Shown piece after piece: positions 1,645 through 23,800 of a DNA stretch of 64,000 nucleotides. The DNA lies in IMG/VR virus record IMGVR_UViG_3300013947_000036, positions 5,787 to 69,786 of that record. The stretch is one strand, 5' to 3'. This DNA is from a virus (lineage: Duplodnaviria > Caudoviricetes). The notes below the pieces were generated by a model that worked only from the letters and a program-made list of their open reading frames with translations, was not told the DNA's origin and searched no databases. Position 1 is the first letter of the stretch; every line of letters begins with the position of its first letter. The translations under genes were made by a program, and so were the position numbers.

Positions 1645-2563
1645 TCCATATAAATATAAAAGTGGTTTATCTATTGCAAATGAACCATCAGATAATCTGA
1701 TATTGACAGTTAATGCTAGACAATATCCAGATATGAATTTTATTTATAATACTTTAATACAAAAATTAAATATACAAAATTATAATATAATAATAGGAAA
1801 TGGAATTGAAAATGTACTTAAAAACGTTTTATTAGGTTTAAAACCTAAACAATTAACTTGGTTTTATCCAACATGGGGTTTTATAGATGTATATTGTAAA
1901 CAATTAAATATTATTACAAATAAATATAAATTTATTTTTAGAAATAATTATTTTTATGAAAAAAATATAAAATCTAATATAGATACTTATTATACAACAT
2001 TTACTATAAATAATTTTTTTAATCATACTATTAATATTAATAATATTAAAAAATCAAAAATATGTATTTTAGATGCATCATATATTAATATTATAAATTG
2101 TTAGCAAAATATTAAAAATTTAATAAATAATATATGTAATAATAAATATTATTGTAAAAATACAATTTTACTTGGTTCATTTGATAAAATATATGGAGCT
2201 GGTTTAAGATTAGGTTTTGCTATTTTTCCAAAAAATTTATCAAAAAAAATACTTTTATAGCGAGAAATATTTATAAATTGTGCTGCAGCACAATTTATAA
2301 ATAATAAAAATTTTTTAGAACCTACTAATTATTTTTATAAAAAAATAAAGTCTTTAAATTTTAATAAAATAAAATTAACATATTTATTTATATGTAAAAA
2401 TTTTATAACTTTATGTTTTAATAAAGAACAAAAATTTTAGATATAGCATAAAAAACAATTAATTAAAAAAATGTATTTATATAGATTTGGAATTCCAAAT
2501 TCAATAATTGAATTTAATAAACTTATAATAGAATTTAATAAAAAACAACTTTTTGTAAATTAA
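1631..2563 (+). CDS. PLP-dependent aminotransferase, class I/II (HisC/CobD-like)
   Basis: TAG readthrough; IIIGNG, LDASY and SFDKIYGAGLRLGFA (PLP-lysine) motifs; ends TAA. Confidence 0.75.
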
Positions 2564-2564
2564 T

Positions 2565-3077
2565 ACAATTACTAAATGCATTAATATTTATTTTTTTTAT
2601 AGTTTTTGGTATATAAATTATTTTTAATGAAATACAATTTTTAAATGCATCTTCCATAATATATTTAGTATTATAAAGATATATATATTTTAATTTTATA
2701 CAATTAAAAAACATTTCCTAATTAACATTTTCACTATTTAATATAATAAATTTTAAATTAAAACAATCACAAAATTTATTATTTAAATAAATTTTATTTT
2801 TTTTTGTTAATTTAATATGTTTTTTAAATATAAAAAAATTTTTCTTACAATATTTATTATCTGCGCAATAATTATATTTAAATATATAAATTAAATTAAA
2901 AATATTAAAAATAAAATTTAAAAATATAAAATTTAAAAATGATTTAAAAGAAAACTAAAAATATTTTTTATAAAGCTAATTTAATATAAACTATTTATTT
3001 ATATTATTATCTTTAAATAATTTTTTAGAGTTAGTTATATTAATTAGTATTTTTCCAAAATTTTTTTTCTTTTTCAT
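2565..3077 (-). pseudogene. Degenerate BspA-type leucine-rich repeat gene
   Basis: IMEDAFKNCISLKIIYIP and FFNCIKLKYIYL repeats; frame broken near 2893. Confidence 0.35.
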
Positions 3078-3211: not shown

Positions 3212-4174
3212 TTAATGATTGCTAGCTTCAATATATATTTTTTCTTTTTTTATAAGTGGTAAATTACAACAACCAAATTTAATTGGACATATTATTTTTT
3301 TAAATTTAATACTATTATAATATATATTTCCAATTGGTTTAATATTAGTAGAATATGCTGTTTGTGGACAATTATAAATTTCACCAATAGAATTTATATA
3401 AATTGCATCTATACCAGTATAACAAATATAATGATAAAATGTATTTATATTATTATTATTAATAATATCATCTTCAAAAACTTCATATATCTATTTTAAT
3501 TTATAATTATATATTATATATTTCTAATCATGTTTATTTTTAACATAATTATATAAATAATCATAATATTGTTTTTCTTCTAATGTATATAATTCATTAT
3601 ATGAATTTGAATTATCTATAAGAGAAATATCTAAATTATGCATAGATATATTATTTTTTTGATAAAAATCTAAAAATAATTTAAATAAATTTATATTTTG
3701 ATTTATATATTTATGTTCAAATAATACTATATTAAATATATTTTTAAAATTATGTAACTTTATATATTTATTAAAAAAATTATAAACTGTATTATTTGTA
3801 TTATTAAAATGATATGATATTGTTAATTCAAAATTTTTAAAATTTAACAAATCATTATAATAATTAATTGATTCTGAAAAATTTGTATATATATTAATAA
3901 TATAATTTGGATTTTCTTTTATAAATTTTTTTAAATCTGGATGTAATGTTGGTTCCCCACCTAATAATTGTATAATTATTTTTTTATTTTGTAAATGTTT
4001 AGTATTTTTAATAAAAGTTGTTAATTTATTTAAATTAAGATAATTATTTTTATTTTTTCTATAATTTTTAGTTGAACAATATGCACAGTTATAATTACAT
4101 TTATCAATAATATCTATATATAATAGAAATTTTTCAGTAGAATAAAACCATTTATTTTTTACAATTGAATACAT
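3212..4174 (-). CDS. Radical SAM protein with C-terminal Cys (SPASM/twitch-like) domain
   Basis: CNYNCAYC, LLGGEPTLHP; TAG at 3524 read through to TAA 3212. Confidence 0.8.
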
Positions 4175-4183
4175 TTTTTTAAT

Positions 4184-4355
4184 ATATAAAATATTATACA
4201 AATCAATATGAAAGTTATATAAAAATTCTTAGGATAGATGTCTATTTGAAAATAAGTTAAAGATGTTATCAAAACTTCATGGATATGAAGTCGTTGAAAT
4301 CAATCTAAGTTATACATCAATTATTAGAAATATTTTATATGGAAATGAAAATACT
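4184..4355. repeat. 172-bp inverted repeat, arm 2 (duplicated tnpB fragment)
   Basis: See 647-818. Confidence 0.9.
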
Positions 4356-4356
4356 A

Positions 4357-5295
4357 TTAACACATATAAAACTAATCACGATTATTAATAGTTAAAAAAT
4401 CTAACATTTGTTTATCACATTCAATACAAGATTGAAATTTGCCATTTAATATATCAGTATAATCTAAAATATTATCTTTATCAAATTCAGACTAATTTAC
4501 AAATAAATAATAACATATACAAGGGGTAACCTAACATAAATTATTTATACGTATAAATTTATTTTTATAACAATAACATTGTATATTTTTTATATTTGTT
4601 TCTTTTATTTTTTTTAAAAGTTTTCTATATTTATAACTAAATAATAAATCTGAACATATTTTATTATTTGCAAGAGTTTTATTTATATTAAATCTTTCAT
4701 AAATAGGATCAGTATCAATTATTTTATAATTAGAAAACTATTTTAAAATATTAAATATTTTATTATTATCTTCATTTTTATTATATTCAAATTTAATATA
4801 CTACATAACATCATTATGATTATTATTTTTAAATGCTAATGCATTTTCTAAAATATTATTTAATTTTGATCCAACTCTATATTTTTCATGTATTGCTTGC
4901 GTTGTACCACATATAGTAAATATTATTTTTGAGTTTGAATTAAAATGAGTACTTAATTTTTTCCACCAATTTATATTATGAAGTGTACCATTTGTAAATA
5001 AATTAATCTAAATATTTTTATAATAAAAATAATCTATAAATTTTATAAGCTCTGGATGTAATGTTGGTTCTGATAAATTTCCACCTATATTAATTTCTTC
5101 AATATTTGGATATTCACTTAATTTAATTAATAATTTATTAATATCAATAAATTTTTTTGGTAATTTTTTTATAAAAAATTTAAAATTTTTAAGCTATGAA
5201 ATACATAAAGGACACTTTAAATTACATATATTAGATAATTCAATATCTACAATTTTAATATCAGTTTTATTTAATATAAATTTTTTATTTATCAT
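4357..5295 (-). CDS. Radical SAM protein
   Basis: CNLKCPLC, GGNLSEPTLHP, LFTNG, C-terminal CxxC; open under TAG=Gln. Confidence 0.8.
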
Positions 5296-6034
5296 AATTT
5301 TTATTTTTATAAAGTTTATCTAAAAAACATTTTGGAGTACGAATTATTCCATTTTTATTTTTCCAATTTCCATCAAAATAATGTTCAATATAATTTGGCT
5401 AATTATATTGCTAAATATATTTAAGTTTAAGTTTATAAAAATTTTTTTTATTTATTAAATACTAAATATTTGACCACCATTTATCATTAGTCTAAAGAAG
5501 TTTAATACTATTTTGTATATTTGAATTAGATATTGAACCAAAAAAATAATTATCATCTGCAACATTATTTGAAGCATTATTATTATAATGTCGATTTACT
5601 ATAAAACTACCAAGCTAAAGCAACTAATTATCAAATGGTTTAAGAGGAAATGTATCACAATCAACATATATTCCTCCAAATTCTTGTATTATTCTAAGTC
5701 TATATATATCACTTAAAAGTTGTATAAATCGTATTTCTTTTCCATAAAAAACTTCTTGATGTTGAAGTATATACATATATGTCTTATTCAAAATATTTTT
5801 ATATTTTTCATTCTTGTTAAGAATATCAAAAATTACTTCATTTAACATTTTGTCATATATTGAATTTATTTTTCCATTATATATATCTTCAATATTTTTT
5901 ATTGAAAAATGAATTAATTTAACAATAAAATCAGGATTTGCTTCTTTATATGCATTAATACTAAACTATACATAATTTGGAATATTATCTCCAAACCAAA
6001 TCATAAAAAGTTGTTTTGGAATCATTATTGACAT
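5285..6034 (-). CDS. Glycosyltransferase family 32 (DXD sugar-binding)
   Basis: IPKQLFMIWFG N-terminus, SDIYRL..GGIYVDCD motif; TAG readthrough. Confidence 0.8.
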
Positions 6035-7016
6035 TTAAATATTTAAGTTTATCAGTTTAAATACATTTTCTTTTGGTAATCCAAATTCACATGGACATCC
6101 ATTTGACATACATAATGTTTTTGAAAACTTAAGCATATATAAATTATATATATTTCCAATATTTTTATATAACATATCTGCACATGGAAATATATTTCCA
6201 TTAAAATGAACATAAAAATATGTTAAACCAGCATTACATATCCATTTTTTAAAATTAAATGTAATATCATTTTTTACTTGAATTTCTGACATATTACATA
6301 TACTATTATCATTATAATATACACTTATATGTTTATCACAATCAAAATTATTATACTATAATAAACGTTTATTATATTCATTAAGTTCAATGTTAGTATA
6401 TTTTTCATGTCTTATTTTATTAAATTTAGTTTTATCATAATCATCTATTAAATTACATTCAACATTATTATTAAATATCTTAAATAATCTATCATAAACA
6501 TTTAAACATTCAAAATAATATTTTGTATGTAACATTATATGTATAGAAGCTATAGCAATAGTTTTACTTTTTAATTCTAATATTTTCTTAATAAATAAAT
6601 TAGTTCTATATTGATTTAAATAATGAAATGATATTAAAAAATTTACATTATATTTAGCACATTCTATATAAAAACTAATAGGCTAAGAAAAATTTGTAAA
6701 TGAATATAATGATATATTATCTAATTTATATATTTTTTTTTATAAATGATAAATAATTTTTATGTAATGTTGGCTCACCACCTATAAGAATAATTTTAAA
6801 TTTATAATTAAAATATTTTTTTTTCAAAAATTTTATATATAATAATACTTTATCTAAATTTATTTCTATATTAGTTCTAATATAATTATCCTTCATATTA
6901 TAACAATATTCACATTTATAATTACATTTATCTATACAATGAATACATATTTTTATTACATTTGTATATTCACTTGAATCTATTTTAATTGGATAATGAG
7001 TCTTTTTAAATTCCAT
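6035..7016 (-). pseudogene. Radical SAM/SPASM protein with one frameshift in an A9 run
   Basis: CNYKCEYC, IGGEPTLH; removing one base at 6733-6741 joins it to the CNAG...FPCADM...CPC domain (6035-6292). Confidence 0.7.
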
Positions 7017-7656
7017 TGTAATTATTTTCACAATTTTTAATAATATCTTCAATTTGAATACGTTTTGAATATTGTCCAGCAAAAATAAAATTAAATTTAC
7101 TGTTATTTAAAATCTTATATGCTAATGGAAATAAATCATATGCATATGGAAAAACATATATATTAGTTTTCAATTTAAATTTATTCAAATCAACAATTGC
7201 ATGCTATATATCAATATTAAATGCATGCATTTGTTGAAATTTTGTCAAATTCATATTTTTCAAATCAAGATGCTATGCACCATGACAAGCTAAATAAATA
7301 TTGTCAAATTCAAGAAGTTCTCTAATTTCATCTATTGACATATATGCATTAAATGCATTTTTATCACCATTATGTATTCTATCATGAAACTTTGCACAAT
7401 CAGCTTCATAAATTGGTTTTGCATTGTTTTGTCTAAAAATTCTTGATGAAAATCCTAATACACAATATATATTTTTAGCTTTTAATTCTTTTATTTTTTC
7501 TTTTATAAAATAAAACTATGAATATAAACAATCATCAAAAAATATTAAATCATTGTCATTTAAAAATGACATAATATCTTTAAAAACAAAAGTATGATGA
7601 ATTACAATCATTCTCTTTATGTTTTGAAGAATATAACTAAAACAATATTTCATCAT
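7006..7656 (-). CDS. Polysaccharide deacetylase-like (CE4/NodB) protein
   Basis: FFDDC, ACHGAQH and VFPYA motifs after TAG readthrough. Confidence 0.65.
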
Positions 7657-8492
7657 AGATTCTTGCAAATCCAATCATATAATAATCCTTTATATATTAT
7701 ACTATGTCTAATAAATTTAGATGATGTCAATTCATGAATATAATTTATCCATTTGCTAGCTTCAAGAATTTCGCATTTTTTTCCATTATTTTCAGGAATA
7801 AAAGAAATATCATAATCAATACATGACAAAAAATCATCAATACCATCTTCAAAATTACGTTTAATATCTTTAGGTGATATTATTCTATGTTTAGACTAAA
7901 TTGCTTCAAGCAAATTCTATGGAAAAGTATCTTCAATATTTGAACATCTATAATAAAAATAATGAGAACAACTTTTCCAAAAATCTTTTGAATCATATGT
8001 ATGTCTCCAATTTGGATTAGTAGCTAAATAATTTTCAATACACTATTTGTCACCCATTGTAATTATTGGAACATGTATATTTTTTACAAAATCTATAAAT
8101 GCAATATTAGATTCTACTCTAATATCTCTTGCATAATATCCTATACTTGGAAATTCATTAACTTCAAAATTGCTTTGATATATAGTTGGAAACCAACATT
8201 GATATTTGTCAATATTTTTTCTGTAATATGAATATCCATCTACAAGTTTTTTACCAGGGAAAAAACTTGCATATTCTTTTCTGCACATTACAAAATCATT
8301 TAGTCTATCTAAACATGAATATTTATAAAAATATGGATTCTAAAGTCTCCAAATTCTATTGTCTTTTGGAATCTATTCTATATTTATATCATAAGACTTA
8401 AAAATATCTGGATATGTATTTTCCAGATATTTTACAGTTATTCCAGATCCTATTGAATTCTTTTTAAGCTAATATATTAAATTATATATCAC
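7653..8492 (-). CDS. Hypothetical protein
   Basis: GTG start overlapping the upstream stop; open to TGA 7653 under TAG=Gln. Confidence 0.6.
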
Positions 8493-9190
8493 TTCACCAT
8501 TTTATAATTTTCAAGATTTGAACGATATATATTAAGTTGTTTTTCAACTTCATCTACGGTTGTAGCATTTTCTATATTTTTTCTAGTTTCAGTCAAAAAA
8601 TCTGTAGTATGTTTTAATTGCATCAATTTATCATAACTATTAAGATACTTTTCAAGAGTATTTAAATTGAATTGTGTAGTATCATATTTTTGCTTCTTTT
8701 CAATATATTCTTGCTCTTGTTCAAATGTTGCATTTTCATCTAGTTTTTCAGGTTCTTCACATTCTTGTGAAGCTTCAATTACTTCAAAATATTTATCTTC
8801 TCTATTAGCATCTGTAATGAAATATCCTGCATTCAAAAGTGACACATAATTATTCAAATAATCCATCAAATCAATTACTGAAACTGTAAACAACGCTTGA
8901 TGCATTCGTGCTGAAACTTCATTTATAGCCATTTGTTTACATCTAGCTAAATCATCTAATGCTTCAATGACTAAATCTTTTGGTTGAACTTCTGGATATT
9001 CTAATGTTTTGCATATTGTTATTTTCTTTCCAGCAGCTAATGCTTTTTTACAATCTTCAATTGTCAACAATGTTGCTCTCAATGTACTGCAATCTGGTTC
9101 AACTAGCATTGCATTAGAATATGTAATACCTAATACTTGCCAAAAATTTCCTTGATCTTTAACTAAAAGAAGTTCAAAATTATGATCCAT
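8489..9190 (-). CDS. Hypothetical phage protein
   Basis: 233-aa ORF with no internal TAG. Confidence 0.75.
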   Translation of the reverse strand: MDHNFELLLVKDQGNFWQVLGITYSNAMLVEPDCSTLRATLLTIEDCKKALAAGKKITICKTLEYPEVQPKDLVIEALDDLARCKQMAINEVSARMHQALFTVSVIDLMDYLNNYVSLLNAGYFITDANREDKYFEVIEASQECEEPEKLDENATFEQEQEYIEKKQKYDTTQFNLNTLEKYLNSYDKLMQLKHTTDFLTETRKNIENATTVDEVEKQLNIYRSNLENYKMVK

Positions 9191-9602
9191 TTTTTATTTT
9201 TCCTATTTTTCCAATTTGAAATTTTACATAATCAATATTATCATCTGAAATATGATACTTTTGTTTTAAAATCTGCACTATTGATCTTAATACCTATGAT
9301 ACTTCAGTTTTATTATACATCTATGTAAACATATCAATATATATTATACTTTCAATAATATTGACATGTTTGATTTTATGTAATTTGTCTTTAATATATT
9401 CAGAATAAAGTTTTAAATTTTTATGATTTGCTGGAATTTCAGTTTCTAATGATTTTTTGTATACTTTATCATTGACTATTATCTGCAAATTTTTTGGAGT
9501 ATTGCAATTGTATATGTTAGTATTAACAGGAAAATCACATTTTTCCAAATGTATTTCTTTCAATGATGTACAATTGTTAAATGCTCCAAATTCTATAATC
9601 AT
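9180..9602 (-). CDS. Hypothetical protein with one BspA-type LRR unit
   Basis: IEFGAFNNCTSLKEIHL; TAG readthrough to TAA 9180. Confidence 0.5.
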
Positions 9603-9605
9603 AGA

Positions 9606-10592
9606 TCAATAGTAGTTGCAATTTCCATAACACCAACAAACTGAATATCCATTGCAATCAGAATAACATATGCAATCCTAAATTTCATTATTAGCTACAA
9701 CTTCAAAAACATTTGTTATTAGTTCTGTTTCTATCAAATTAGTTTCATTAGACAATTTATCTGAATGATAAATCCAATGATCATGTTTTCGATTGCCAGT
9801 TTTTTTATCATTACCTTCTGGTTGCATTTTGCCAAGAATATTATTCAATTCTTTAAGTTCTTTTATAATATTACCAGATTGTGCAGTATTTAAACGTTCA
9901 ATACCAGTATTATTATTATTCCAAGCATATTTTGGAGATTTATTTTTTTCTCTAATTCTTTTATTAAGTACATCTACTAACCAATTATAATCACCTATAC
10001 TTATATTATAGTATTTAAGTATAGTATCATGAGATATTTCTATAAATTCTGAATTTAATATATGACCTCTACACTCAGATTGTATTTCTGTTCTACTACC
10101 TTGGTAATATTTTGTATCTTTATATGCTACAGATTCTACTTCTTGTTTAGTATAAGAATATGCATGGTTTTTACAATAAATTATTTCATCATTTGATTTT
10201 GGAACAGGCATAGACCAGTGTTCTGGAAAATCATGTGAATCAATTATAGTTGAAAGTGGACGACGAACACTATTTGTTGACAAAATTGGTTTTCCTTTAT
10301 CATCATATCCAAAATCATCTTCATCATATGAAGTTTTAACAATAGGCACTTTAGATCTAAAAATACATTTATATTCAGTTATATTATTAAATGATGTATT
10401 ATCATCTTCTGGATATACTGTAAATATACAACCTTTTTCTCCATGACATGAAAATCCAACAGCACATAAATCTTCTTCTTTAATTTTTTTATCTGGATTA
10501 TCATGTAACTTATCAAGTAAACTATATCTATAATCATTATAATATTCTGGTAATTTTACCTATTCATTAATATTTGATAAATTAATTGACAT
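9606..10592 (-). CDS. 328-aa protein with C-terminal Cys-rich tail (CICYSDCNGYSVCWCYGNCNYY)
   Basis: ATG 10592; the tail lies beyond TAG 9678; ends TGA 9606. Confidence 0.75.
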
Positions 10593-10594
10593 AA

Positions 10595-11671
10595 TCAAAT
10601 TCCTTGTGTTAAATAAACATAATTCAATAATTTAGAAATATATCCAAACCATTGATAATATTTACATTTATTTTTATTGTTTGATCTACATGATGACCAA
10701 TTTTTGTATATATCTTCATCATCTTTCAACTAAGTGACATGACATGCAGAACAATGTGTAGCGCCACATTTAATGCATTTTTCATCTAGTTCCATATTGA
10801 ATTTTTCAGAAATAACTTCATATAATGAATTTATGTCATTTATATTGTTAGTTATAAACTTTTTTGAATTTGAAAGATATGGACATCCATGACAAATGTA
10901 AATATTTCCATCATTATGCATATGAATACTATTTGCTAATCCACAATTCATTTTTCTGCCATCACTAAACCATTGCCATAATGGTTTATGGTTCTTTTTA
11001 ATGTATTGCAATTCTTTTTTAGCAACTTCTACAACAACTTTTTTCCAAATTTCAAATATTTCAGGTTTTGGAGAAGTTGCAGTATCTAATGTTGGAAAAT
11101 ATGTAACTTTATTGTCAAATCTATTTGCTAATTCTTTATATGAATCCCAAATTTCTGGAAGTTTATCTATCAAATCATATGACAATGTAGCTTTGAATGA
11201 AAACTAAATATCATTATCATATAAATATTGAGCAGTTTCTATTACTTGTTTTCCAGTATTTCCACGCTTCAATGTATGATGTGGTTCACCATCATAAGAC
11301 AATTGAAAATGAAATTTATGTTTATTTTTCTAAAAATAATCTTTAGAAATTAAAGTTTTAAATCTATCAATCAATGTTCCATTTGTATAACAATGATATT
11401 TGACAAAATCATAATCACATGTATTTTCTATGATTTTATCCATAAAATCAGTATTTAAAAATGGCTCTCCACCCCAAAATGACAATATAAATGAACTATA
11501 TTTGTCTTTATCAAAATTTTTGCATGCATCAATTATAAGCTATAATTGTCTATTTTCAATATCTAGATTTCTTGGATTACATGTATGAGAACCTTCAAAA
11601 CAATATGCGCAATTGCAATTGCAATTATTAGTAAGTGTTACTTCAACAAATATATGTGGTTTATTGTCCAT
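10595..11671 (-). CDS. Radical SAM/SPASM-domain enzyme (peptide/protein maturase-like)
   Basis: CNCNCAYCFEG, FWGGEP, YTNG, SYDG; C-terminal CGL...YICHGC...CxxC...CxxC. Confidence 0.85.
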
Positions 11672-19258: not shown

Positions 19259-21178
19259 TCAATATTGAACAGTATTTATATTGTTGACAGATTTACGTAT
19301 AACTTTTATTTTGCTAGCAATATTTGCTGAATTATATAAAATAGGAAATTGGAATGTTTCAAGTGATCTAGAGTTAGTTGAAATTTCTAGATCATCACCA
19401 TAATCTATGAATGTTGATGTCCATGTTGCAAATGACAAACCAATCTATATTCTTTTTTCTCCAGTTTCAGTATTATAGTAAACAGTTCTTACATTTGTTA
19501 TAGAACCAATTTCATATATGTCATCTAGCAAATCATTGTAATTAACTAGTTGTCCAAGTTTGAAATTGTCTTCATTGAAAAAATTCTGAATTTTTGTAGC
19601 AATCTATTGCTATATGTTTGAGTTAGCATACAATGTATTATTGTCAATAGTTATTTCAAAATATGAATAGTTGTTAGCATCAAACATTGTAGTGTCATTG
19701 CTAAAATACATTTGCATTGCTTGTTCTTCAGTTTGTGCACATGGAGCAAAATAGACATCTAATGGTTTTAGATAAACAGGTTCATGTGTAAGTGTTTTTA
19801 TGCTAGTTATTTCAGAATTCAAAACATTTTTATATATTTCAGCATCTGCTATCATTTTTATCCAAATATATACATTGTTCATGTCAGCAGCATCTGAATA
19901 TTTCAAATCATATTTAGTCAATCTATTTGGAGTTATGTAATAATCTCCAGAATTATGTTTTTTTACACCAATGTTGTACAACCATCTATAGAATGTAGAA
20001 ATATATTCTGCATTGTTTTGACATTTTACATCAAGAATATCAGATTTAAATCTGTTTTTTATGAAATATTCATAGTCAGATGCAGTTACAAGTCTATTTC
20101 CAGTTTTGAACCATTGTGGAGCATTTCGTCTTATTTCATCTACGCTTTCTTCAGCTAAACCATATGATGATTTTTCAGTGTTTGACCATTTAGCATCTGA
20201 GTAGATTGTGCCACTAGCCATATTTGAACTATCAATATCTTCATCTGCTCCAAAAATTCCTTTATATACATCTGATGACATGCCAAAAACAGATTTATTA
20301 TGGACTATCTTAGCATTTTCAACATCATATGGATTCAATTGCAAAGTTTCATCATTTGAATCAAGATACATAATGAAAATTTGAGCATCTTTTTCTGGAA
20401 TTTCACCAGTTGTATTGTCACCAAATGACAATTCATATACTTTGTTTTCATTAAGTCTTACATTGTATATAGTGTCAGTGCTAGTATGTATATATGAACC
20501 ATTGTCAGTATTGTTTGCCATGAACAAACCATCAGATGTAGCTGTCCATTGTTTAAATATATTTTGATTCAAACTGTCTTTTACATAAACATGTATCATA
20601 GAATCTGATACATATTGCTTAGAATTTGAATCTGATTTCAAATCATCTAATACAAATGTCTAAAATGCTTCACCTGATGATGTAAAAATAGTAGGATAAA
20701 GCTTCCATATTCCATTGTAGAAAATAAATGTAGCATCATTATTTACATTCAAATCTTCATCTTTGACTAATGAATAATAAACTTTTCTTCCATTTGCATC
20801 ACTAAGTTTAGTATATATTGTTGAATATTTCTTAAAACTTCCTTGATTAACAGTTAAATTTTGTTTGTTTGTTATAGTAAATGTTGTAGTTGATGGTGAA
20901 TAACCTTTTGGATTATAACCAATAAACTTGCAAAGTCTATTTATATTTTCATATATCTATGTGTCACTAAACATAGCTTCTGCTGCAGCAGAATTCAATT
21001 GATACATTAAACATTGATACATATATGACACAATATCAATCAATATTGCAAGATTTGATCCTTCATAGACCTAATCTGTGAATCTTGTGTCTTCTGAAAG
21101 TTTTCTAGTTATAAGATCTTTTATACTATAAGCAGAAAATCTCAAATACTATATATTATTATCTGTAGATGATGCCAT
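19259..21178 (-). CDS. gp6: Baseplate wedge protein, T4 gp6-like
   Basis: DQVYEGSNLAILID, ESVDEIRRNAP, RLVTASDY motifs; 639 aa after readthrough. Confidence 0.85.
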
Positions 21179-23053: not shown

Positions 23054-23800
23054 TCACTCCGATTGTTTTGTGTATGTATACATATAACTATATTGTTGTT
23101 CATTCAATGTAGGAATAGAATATATTATTTCAAGATGAATAGTATTGTTTTCAGTGTCTTCAACAGTTGAAACATTTACAATCTAGTTTATAGATACTCT
23201 TGGTTCATATTCTGAAATGCAATGTTGAATTTCAGCTATAATCTATTCTGTATTGTAATCAGTTATTCCAGAATACAAATATTTGTAAAGTGTATTTCCA
23301 AATTCTGGATTCAAAATTCTTTCACCTGGCAACCATGAAAAAATATTATGCAAAGAATTTTGAACAGCTCTTACATTGACACTTCTGTCAACTTTATATT
23401 TTGACATAGATGTGTTAATGATAAAACTATTGTAGTCATCTATATAAGATTTGTCAGGAAATATTTTAACAGTATCTAAATCATGTGATAAATCTCTATC
23501 AGTCAATATTGAAACATTGTTTAAAGTATTGTTTAATTTATCTAAATTAGAAATAACATAATTTGAAATTTTTGAATCAGCTGTCAATTCAACACTACCA
23601 TTGCTAGTGCTACTATATATGTAGTTTTCTAATTCTAAATCTTTTAAATAATTGATTTCATTAGGCTTTATGTAAAATTCTCTAGATGTTGCTGCAGAAT
23701 TGAACTTTGATTTCATTGAAATATCACTATAGACAACTAAATTGTCATTTGACAACAAATTTGTTTGATTATTTCCAACATTATATATTTTATTTGCCAT
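23054..23800 (-). CDS. gp25: Baseplate wedge subunit, gp25-like, with N-terminal extension
   Basis: AVQNSLHNIFSWLPGERILNPEFG and YEPRV motifs. Confidence 0.85.

Follow-up and report, generated by a model that had tools for sequence, protein, structure and literature searches.

We describe a Cys-rich C-terminal protein tail and the radical S-adenosylmethionine (rSAM)/SPASM enzyme encoded directly upstream of it in a 64,000-nucleotide stretch of viral DNA (Duplodnaviria; Caudoviricetes), namely positions 5,787 to 69,786 of the IMG/VR record IMGVR_UViG_3300013947_000036, hereafter the window. The window is a 25% GC fragment of this 69.8-kb virus record, with an estimated completeness of 25%. When TAG is read as glutamine, the open reading frames (ORFs) of at least 150 amino acids (aa) in the whole window total 21,183 aa, versus 10,428 aa under genetic code 11, and this doubling of the long-ORF sum supports TAG as a Gln codon window-wide. 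The source is a stop-codon-recoded jumbo phage; no tRNA, and hence no suppressor tRNA, was found within the window. The locus is a copy of a four-gene cassette, widespread and so far undescribed, which comprises a small helical protein, an rSAM/SPASM enzyme devoid of the recognition element (RRE) of RiPP (ribosomally synthesized, post-translationally modified peptide) maturases, the Cys-tailed protein (hereafter the tail protein), and a putative partner protein of ~200-266 aa (Table 1).

Under TAG = Gln, the minus-strand ORF 9606..10598 crosses two TAG codons, Q13 and Q307, and the residue numbers used here for the tail protein (Q13, Q307, D308-Y330) follow this printed ORF frame; its length of 328 aa is counted from the ATG at 10592. 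The protein ends with ...EIQ-DCICYSDCNGYSVCWCYGNCNYY-TGA, and the code 11 reading cuts off the Cys tail. The Q307 TAG aligns to CAA Gln codons of the relatives, and a regulatory TAG before the tail was ruled out, because relatives have CAA, AAT and other codons at that place and codon 13 is a TAG as well. Between the stop of the enzyme gene (TGA, 10597-10595) and the ATG of the tail gene lies a gap of 2 nt, AAGGA, a putative ribosome-binding site, stands 8 nt upstream of this ATG, and a promoter/terminator scan, a weak method in AT-rich DNA, found no terminator-like site on the coding strand. An earlier note, made from the sequence alone, had placed beyond the TAG at 9678 six Cys in 19 residues, arranged as two 12-residue units that are lost under code 11, in a gene beginning 2 nt after the rSAM/SPASM stop, and all of these coordinates hold. 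Its description of the tail as hidden by recoding is true of the window, but such tails are not confined to recoded phages.

The six Cys of the window tail fall into the two 12-residue units CICYSDCNGYSV and CWCYGNCNYY. With a Cys content of 2.15% in the window's long ORFs, 0.045 segments of 19 residues with at least six Cys were expected and one, the tail, was observed, and the conservation of the tail across ~120 clusters rules out chance. A word-based search found 18 close relatives, the bodies of which are mostly 26-37% identical and the last 23 residues nearly identical, and a profile search among 1.84 billion representatives found ~120 clusters carrying the tail in the form D-C-[IV]-C-[YN]-[ST]-D-C-x5-C-x-C-[YH]-G-N-C-x2-Y; for most of the close and distant clusters, the bodies are 20-37% identical while the tail is nearly unchanged. 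Among 98 ungapped tails the six Cys are invariant, the Asp at hexad position 6 (Asp314) and the preceding Asp/Glu are each kept in 96, and the Val is kept in 76, giving the consensus D-C-[IV]-C-[YNH]-[ST]-D-C-x2-[YNF]-x-V-C-x-C-[YH]-G-[NYH]-C-x2-[YN]. Hexad position 4 varies between Y, N and H, so that near-invariance is confined to the six Cys, Asp314 and the terminal Tyr; the clade of the window also conserves Tyr312, 318, 324 and 330. A common 8-Cys variant, DCICNSDCNCNAVCACHNNCGCNY, has CxC in all four hexads, therefore the basic period is six residues and the 12-residue unit noted earlier, although real, is a super-repeat of the hexad that the relatives reveal. Some members have an insertion of up to ~27 residues between the tail halves.

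The codons of the tail differ among loci while the peptide stays constant (TGC/TGT, TCT/TCA, GGA/GGT, AAT/AAC, GTT/GTA/GTG), which shows selection at the protein level; a DNA- or RNA-level cause of the invariance was ruled out, since synonymous sites vary. We define the Cys-hexad tail family by a C-terminal D-C-[IV]-C-x-[ST]-D-C-x5-C-x-C-x3-C-x2-Y with a helix before it and an rSAM of the window's type (P0002) upstream, and the window protein belongs to this family. It falls into no Pfam, PHROG or NCBIfam family, and neither Pfam nor NCBIfam gave a match for the tail proteins P0001 (that of the window), P0224, P0254 and that of Peredibacter. Searches of IMG/VR with single proteins found no close relatives, tblastn of P0013 against 50,697 GenBank phages gave no match, and Brucella phage 'structural proteins' were rejected as relatives of P0224, because the match is due to the Peptidase_S74 domain only and those proteins are without the Cys tail. 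In the literature searched, we found no prior description of the tail motif or of a pairing of rSAM or thioether chemistry with virions or tail fibres. The tail is a real, strongly conserved and undescribed feature. Three distant tail proteins (L010:9162-9764, L012:3131-3613 and L077:1010-1561) have a Cys-rich N-terminus (MGC..SYC...C or MACSGGHC...), and an invariant C.GH motif is common to the distant proteins and that of the window (SECRGH, ~residue 176); this would be a second conserved Cys site, which may pair with the tail.

The tail gene is accompanied by the rSAM gene wherever its context could be assessed in three collections, which were scanned with a degenerate, code-15-aware DNA pattern for the tail; simple Cys/Asp/Val repeats, amounting to ~40% of the pattern matches in IMG/VR and >80% in the genomes and metagenomes, were discarded. 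IMG/VR gave 26 pattern matches and 16 true tails, all assessable, the metagenomes 120 matches and 20 true tails, 17 of them assessable and three within 1 kb of a contig end, and the cellular genomes (185,579 species) 43 matches and three true tails, all assessable; an rSAM gene lies upstream on the same strand in 16/16, 17/17 and 3/3 of the assessable loci, respectively. The three cellular carriers are all Bdellovibrionota, two Halobacteriovorax and one Peredibacter. The upstream rSAMs are 27-99% identical to the window's enzyme, the tail proteins range from 112 to 330 aa, and the two genes are spaced by 0-13 nt or overlap, the rSAM ending ~0.45-0.5 kb upstream of the tail itself in IMG/VR. 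The tail gene is likewise directly preceded by an rSAM gene of the same strand in the window, in L002, L003 (each with two tandem tail genes), L004, L010, L011, L012, L211-213 and L214, on the 9.4-kb contig of the S74-bearing member P0224, and in L013 and L014, in both of which the upstream ORF is truncated and encodes a SPASM C-terminus. Conversely, five of five sampled rSAM homologues (P0058, P0083, P0119, P0131 and P0141, with 46, 42, 38, 35 and 32% identity) are directly followed by a tail-variant gene. The co-occurrence of tail and SPASM gene, which the earlier note had proposed as a check, is thereby borne out in both directions, and such neighbourhoods strongly favour a functional link between the two genes.

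The enzyme is a member of the radical SAM superfamily (PF04055, 41.2 bits versus a cut-off of 29.5), and its C17-x3-C21-x2-C24 is invariant across 29 homologues. Invariant in the same homologues are the SPASM residues C243-x11-G255-x4-C260, C299-x2-C302-x4-C307-x2-C310 and C336, the spacing of which is slightly shorter than in the canonical seven-Cys motif for two auxiliary clusters, CX9-15GX4C ... CX2CX5CX3C ... C; the Pfam SPASM hidden Markov model was unreported for the window's enzyme, and PF13186 is precomputed for the homologues P0067 and P0109. Its best NCBIfam match is PapB (2.5e-14, 53.3 bits versus a cut-off of 340), which the Peredibacter orthologue matches with 7.6e-28 and 97.7 bits versus 340, with anSME as its second-best match, and the window's enzyme is a member of none of the named maturase families (PapB NF047865, SCIFF TIGR03974, QhpD TIGR03906, anSME TIGR03942 and CXXX-repeat TIGR04115, among others). 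The best matches in the PDB are 8vpo (5e-18, residues 10-345 versus 110-452), which is TvgB, a poly-cyclopropylglycine synthase (PMC10878394), and CteB (9e-16). These alignments start only at residues ~100-110 of the TvgB and CteB chains while CX3CX2C begins at residue 17 of the window's enzyme, therefore the latter is without the N-terminal RRE domain, and it has no fused PqqD-like RRE as in RRE-dependent RiPP maturases. By these profile matches, its nearest characterised relatives are RiPP/peptide or protein maturases.

Several lines of evidence relate the tail protein to phage fibres. First, upstream of its gene lie the baseplate genes gp25-like (23054-23800) and gp6-like (19259-21178) as well as a gene for a 1473-aa protein. 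Second, its body diverges much faster than the neighbour genes, a pattern typical of receptor-binding proteins; one and the same 4.7-kb contig encodes an rSAM (P0024) with 77% identity to that of the window and a tail protein (P0011) with ~33-36% identity outside the tail. Third, many relatives continue past the tail as ...CGCNY-SDERLKENI..., which is the start of a Peptidase_S74 domain, an intramolecular chaperone. This domain was found in 3 of 130 members scanned (best E 3.7e-15) and in L020, there with 30.1 bits versus a cut-off of 22 and with model position 1 on the residue after the tail; most of the IMG/VR and metagenome tails show the S74-type continuation, and other members retain a 12-13-residue S74 remnant only. 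The same chaperone is found in endosialidases, the T5 L-shaped tail fibre and the Bdellovibrio MAT fibres, and predatory bacteria use S74 fibre adhesins (PMC10769870). As is established (Schulz 2010, cited in PMC10769870), the trimer folding of fibres and spikes is driven by S74 domains, which then release themselves by cleavage at that Ser. As S74 begins right after the tail in relatives, the tail is the C-terminal end of the mature fibre-like protein. The window protein, unlike these fibres, has no S74 domain; it is an S74-less form in a family to which S74 fibres also belong, and its last residue coincides with the mature C-terminus that self-cleavage of S74 would produce. No S74 fibre with a Cys-hexad segment or an rSAM partner is described in Pfam, the PDB or the literature searched.

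Judged by this context, the tail protein is probably a fibre-like protein of the tail/baseplate region and probably trimeric, and a virion location would fit the baseplate genes and the S74 link. The AlphaFold2 model of the whole tail protein (19 sequences) was unusable, with a predicted local distance difference test score (pLDDT) of 41, and that of the C-terminal 210 aa (104 sequences), with a pLDDT of 66, has long helices (~66-89) before the tail. Foldseek had no match for the C-terminal model at E <= 0.001 in the PDB or BFVD, and at the sequence level neither the family profile nor P0224 matched any PDB entry significantly. A side observation concerns the exchange of bodies. In L006:2455-2560, the body of the paralogue P0018 is joined to the 137-aa and 233-aa genes that follow P0008 in L002, and across the tail and on into the following gene the DNA matches that of L002 exactly (compared with L002:10769-10880 and L005:10709-10820; in L005 the P0018 body sits beside the terminase gene). 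The invariant tail seems to be a recombination joint for swapping fibre bodies.

The earlier note had paired the tail gene with the rSAM gene, and this adjacency stands, but the unit comprises four genes rather than two, often with S74 after the tail in relatives. A 52-96-aa homologue of the small protein precedes the rSAM gene and overlaps its start in L002, L003, L004, L010, L011, L012, L211 and L214; the homologues share the core L.L.EAS.LL..EPE.S..LL, the small protein has no Pfam, PHROG or NCBIfam family, and it may stand in for the absent RRE. Directly downstream of the tail gene, homologues of the partner with 198-266 aa are encoded in L002 (82% identical to that of the window), L010, L011, L012, L013, L020 and L077 (blastp 1e-6 to 3e-149) and likewise in the Peredibacter locus, and 243- and 246-aa proteins with the NREDKYFE motif were recognised by eye in L211 and L214; the partner matches no named family.

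Table 1. Genes and features of the cassette locus, in positions of the window (residue numbers in the ORF frame 9606..10598)
Feature	Position	Strand	Remarks
Small helix-rich protein, 96 aa	11661..11951	-	First cassette gene; 11-nt overlap of its stop with the rSAM start
Radical SAM/SPASM enzyme (P0002), 358 aa	10595..11671	-	Four in-frame TAGs; Pfam Radical_SAM 2.5e-10
Cys-tailed protein (P0001), 328 aa	9606..10592	-	Fast-evolving body; TAGs 10560-10562 (Q13) and 9678-9680 (Q307)
Tail coding sequence, D308-Y330, DCICYSDCNGYSVCWCYGNCNYY	9609..9677	-	Near-invariant in 98 ungapped tails
LRR_5-like protein, 140 aa	9180..9602	-	Between tail and partner genes, in this phage clade only
Partner protein, 233 aa, motif NREDKYFE	8489..9190	-	Fourth conserved cassette gene

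In Peredibacter, the cassette adjoins cytochrome b/c genes and not prophage genes, and it opens a long operon of a chromosomal island (L089:12594-19900 and L090:1-11400) with at least seven further rSAMs, a DegT aminotransferase, PIG-L and CE4 deacetylases and an epimerase, together with a 356-aa pilin-like protein that has a prepilin N-methylation motif and a Peptidase_S74 domain. Several members of this island are homologous to the window's genes at 4357-5295, 3212-4201 and 7006-7674, therefore the cassette is part of a larger conserved island common to jumbo phages and predatory bacteria. In the window's island, a further rSAM/SPASM gene (6035-7082, minus strand) is split over two frames across an A-rich stretch, its CX3CX2C part ending ...FIKKNI* and its SPASM C-part lying in another frame, which could be a frameshift, a sequencing error or programmed slippage.

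Based on these findings, we lean towards the view that the tail-bearing protein is the target of the rSAM/SPASM enzyme, which would introduce cross-links within or close to the tail, and for these thioethers are the leading candidate. The enzyme-substrate relation is strongly implied, though unproven. First, the enzyme would recognise the invariant tail, possibly together with the amphipathic helix before it and with the small protein replacing the RRE. Upon recognition, it would install radical-mediated cross-links, the leading candidate being Cys-S-to-carbon thioethers as in ranthipeptides, sactipeptides and QhpC, with Asp314 as one possible acceptor. The product would be a rigid, protease- and redox-resistant tip, and in relatives the S74 chaperone would cleave itself off after the final Tyr. 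One enzyme may serve several paralogous substrates, which could explain the frozen tail and the diverging bodies. The fuller picture we put forward tentatively, as plausible but short of probable: radical cross-links, thioether or other, within one chain or among three chains, at the C-terminal tip of a phage tail-fibre-like protein, which would bring RiPP-type chemistry to a full-size virion or adhesin protein, encoded by a mobile cassette of recoded jumbo phages, other phages and predatory Bdellovibrionota, wherein the tail would be a universal handle for diversifying receptor-binding bodies.

The closest parallels of the proposed reaction are among the peptide and protein maturases. QhpD, a SPASM enzyme, forms cross-links between Cys and Asp/Glu carbons in the Cys-rich QhpC, the gamma subunit of quinohemoprotein amine dehydrogenase. 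As with the tail protein, QhpC is not a secreted peptide but stays a subunit of a larger assembly, the window tail has a near-invariant Asp, and the QhpD model TIGR03906 matches the window's enzyme with 2e-6 and the Peredibacter orthologue with 2e-16. However, these scores are far below the 453-bit cut-off, the dehydrogenase context is missing, the window's enzyme has no N-terminal extension, and QhpC is a short, leader-bearing subunit whereas the candidate here is a fibre-like protein of 110-330 aa with a C-terminal motif. The thioethers formed by the ranthipeptide maturases PapB (freyrasin) and CteB (SCIFF) involve several Cys that stand close together in a C-terminal core. Of the NCBIfam models, PapB fits the enzyme best, near full length, and CteB is its second-best PDB match; yet the scores reach 53-98 bits versus a cut-off of 340, the RRE is absent, and the candidate substrate is not a short peptide. 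The tail motif matches no SCIFF, CX3D or other listed precursor family, and the candidates, with 110-330 aa versus the short (<~60 aa) precursors of the described families, which have a leader and a Cys-rich core, are not sacti- or ranthipeptide precursors of these families. TvgB, the best match among solved structures, is likewise of the rSAM/SPASM type, and its target is a short motif in repeats; however, it modifies Val within TVGG repeats of a peptide that is small, it carries an RRE, and the same chemistry is not indicated here.

Several points weigh against this proposal. Adjacency shows co-function and not an enzyme-substrate relation, and the counts of 16, 17 and three paired loci are not fully independent, as many loci are from related phages and some contigs recur between collections. 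The earlier note had held that a tail without a neighbouring rSAM would refute modification; every assessable locus of the three collections is paired, but such tails do exist, namely the extra paralogues P0018 (L005-L007) and P0015 (L008) of the window's own phage clade. Both neighbour the genes for terminase and DUF7487, and no rSAM is encoded within 10 kb of either. P0018 shares its 289-kb contig with the L002 cassette, therefore the enzyme is available in trans. P0015 is on a 27.9-kb contig, and the 15 kb of it that were read showed no rSAM. The cassette is surrounded by 6-8 further rSAM genes and sugar-tailoring enzymes, so that the enzyme could belong to a different pathway. Every maturase family scores far below its curated cut-off. 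The modelled tail is unstructured (pLDDT 34-46), and the models thus lend no structural support. Finally, RiPP logic often combines a conserved recognition element with a variable modified core, and the tail could accordingly be a docking tag.

The surrounding island and the paralogues away from any rSAM would also suit an unmodified metal-binding or disulfide knot at a trimeric fibre tip, with the rSAM acting elsewhere in the island on a sugar, a glycan or another residue or protein, and with the adjacency reflecting the joint assembly of a decorated fibre. In relatives, the CxC pairs at regular 6-residue spacing stand directly before the S74 trimerisation chaperone, which would put three tails in register on the three-fold axis, and both the phage and the bacterial islands hold, besides the other rSAMs, aminotransferase, epimerase, deacetylase and glycosyltransferase genes. 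On such an axis, metal is bound by HxH sites at the T4 gp37 fibre tips (iron) and at the P2 gpV and phi92 gp138 spike tips, where a two-ligand x-spaced motif is likewise repeated at a trimeric tip; this is an analogy of layout only, as the ligands are His and not Cys, there is no enzyme partner, and no sequence relation exists. However, it is this rSAM family, and not the others of the island, that is tied to the tail gene in every assessable locus, down to 27-32% identity, the enzyme is of the peptide-maturase SPASM type and not of the sugar-modifying type, and we know of no fibre precedent for a hexathiolate or trithiolate site on a three-fold axis. We consider such a knot unlikely, though deserving of serious attention.

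Little credence is given to the possibility that the tail protein is the substrate of the rSAM in another chemistry, such as anSME-type conversion of Cys to formylglycine, Tyr/Trp cyclophane C-C bonds, TvgB-type Val cyclopropanation or epimerisation, or that the tail is a follower-type docking tag with the modified residues in the body or the N-terminal Cys motifs. The best PDB match being a cyclopropylglycine synthase and the Val being kept in 76 of 98 tails would suit cyclopropanation, the second-best NCBIfam match of the Peredibacter orthologue would suit the anSME reaction, and the four Tyr conserved in the window's clade would suit cyclophanes, while the N-terminal MGC..C..C motif of distant members and the invariant C.GH motif would offer sites of modification if the tail is a docking tag. 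Nevertheless, the confinement of near-invariance to the six Cys, Asp314 and the terminal Tyr points to Cys-centred chemistry, and family scores so far below the cut-offs favour none of these assignments. It is very improbable that the tail binds an iron-sulfur cluster and makes the protein an electron donor or cluster carrier for the island rSAMs instead of a substrate, since, although each island encodes six to eight rSAMs, which all require reduced [4Fe-4S] clusters, and the Cys density of the tail is very high, the tail is without the ferredoxin-type CxxCxxC...CP spacing, the hypervariable, paralogous bodies are unlike a redox partner, and neither the fusion to an autocleaving fibre chaperone nor the position in a baseplate/fibre module fits such a role.

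Returning to cross-linking of the tail, rSAM/SPASM maturases are known almost entirely from small peptides (RiPPs) and a few enzyme subunits (QhpC, sulfatases). The pairing of an rSAM/SPASM maturase with a Cys-rich substrate is thus already known, and what is new here is a full-size fibre-like protein as the candidate substrate. If the proposal is true, it would extend rSAM/SPASM chemistry to phage virions and predator adhesins, provide a new way to harden or lock a receptor-binding tip, and open to RiPP mining a substrate class hidden by standard gene calling, as code 11 truncates the tails of recoded phages; moreover, the candidate 'precursor' is everywhere too long for peptide-centred searches. 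The 23-residue tail and its dedicated enzyme could be a portable tag for enzymatic protein stapling, and with Halobacteriovorax sp. CON-3 and Peredibacter sp. HCB2-198, cultivable carriers are at hand.

Some minor features accompany the cassette. The LRR_5-like protein of 140 aa has a weak LRR_5 match (0.071) and is 59% identical to that of the 137-aa gene of L002; its gene is absent at that position in distant cassettes. It is one of two short BspA-type LRR_5-like proteins in the window (9180-9602 and 2535-3077, both on the minus strand), and just upstream of the distant cassettes L010, L011 and L214 lie large LRR_5 proteins with faint thioredoxin-like matches. In related jumbo-phage contigs, RVT_1 reverse transcriptase and TnpB/Cas12f-like genes occur near or inside the cassette region (L005:14748-15911, L005:1-1292 and L211:2555-3715), the TnpB-like gene of L211 standing between the second rSAM gene and that of the small protein.

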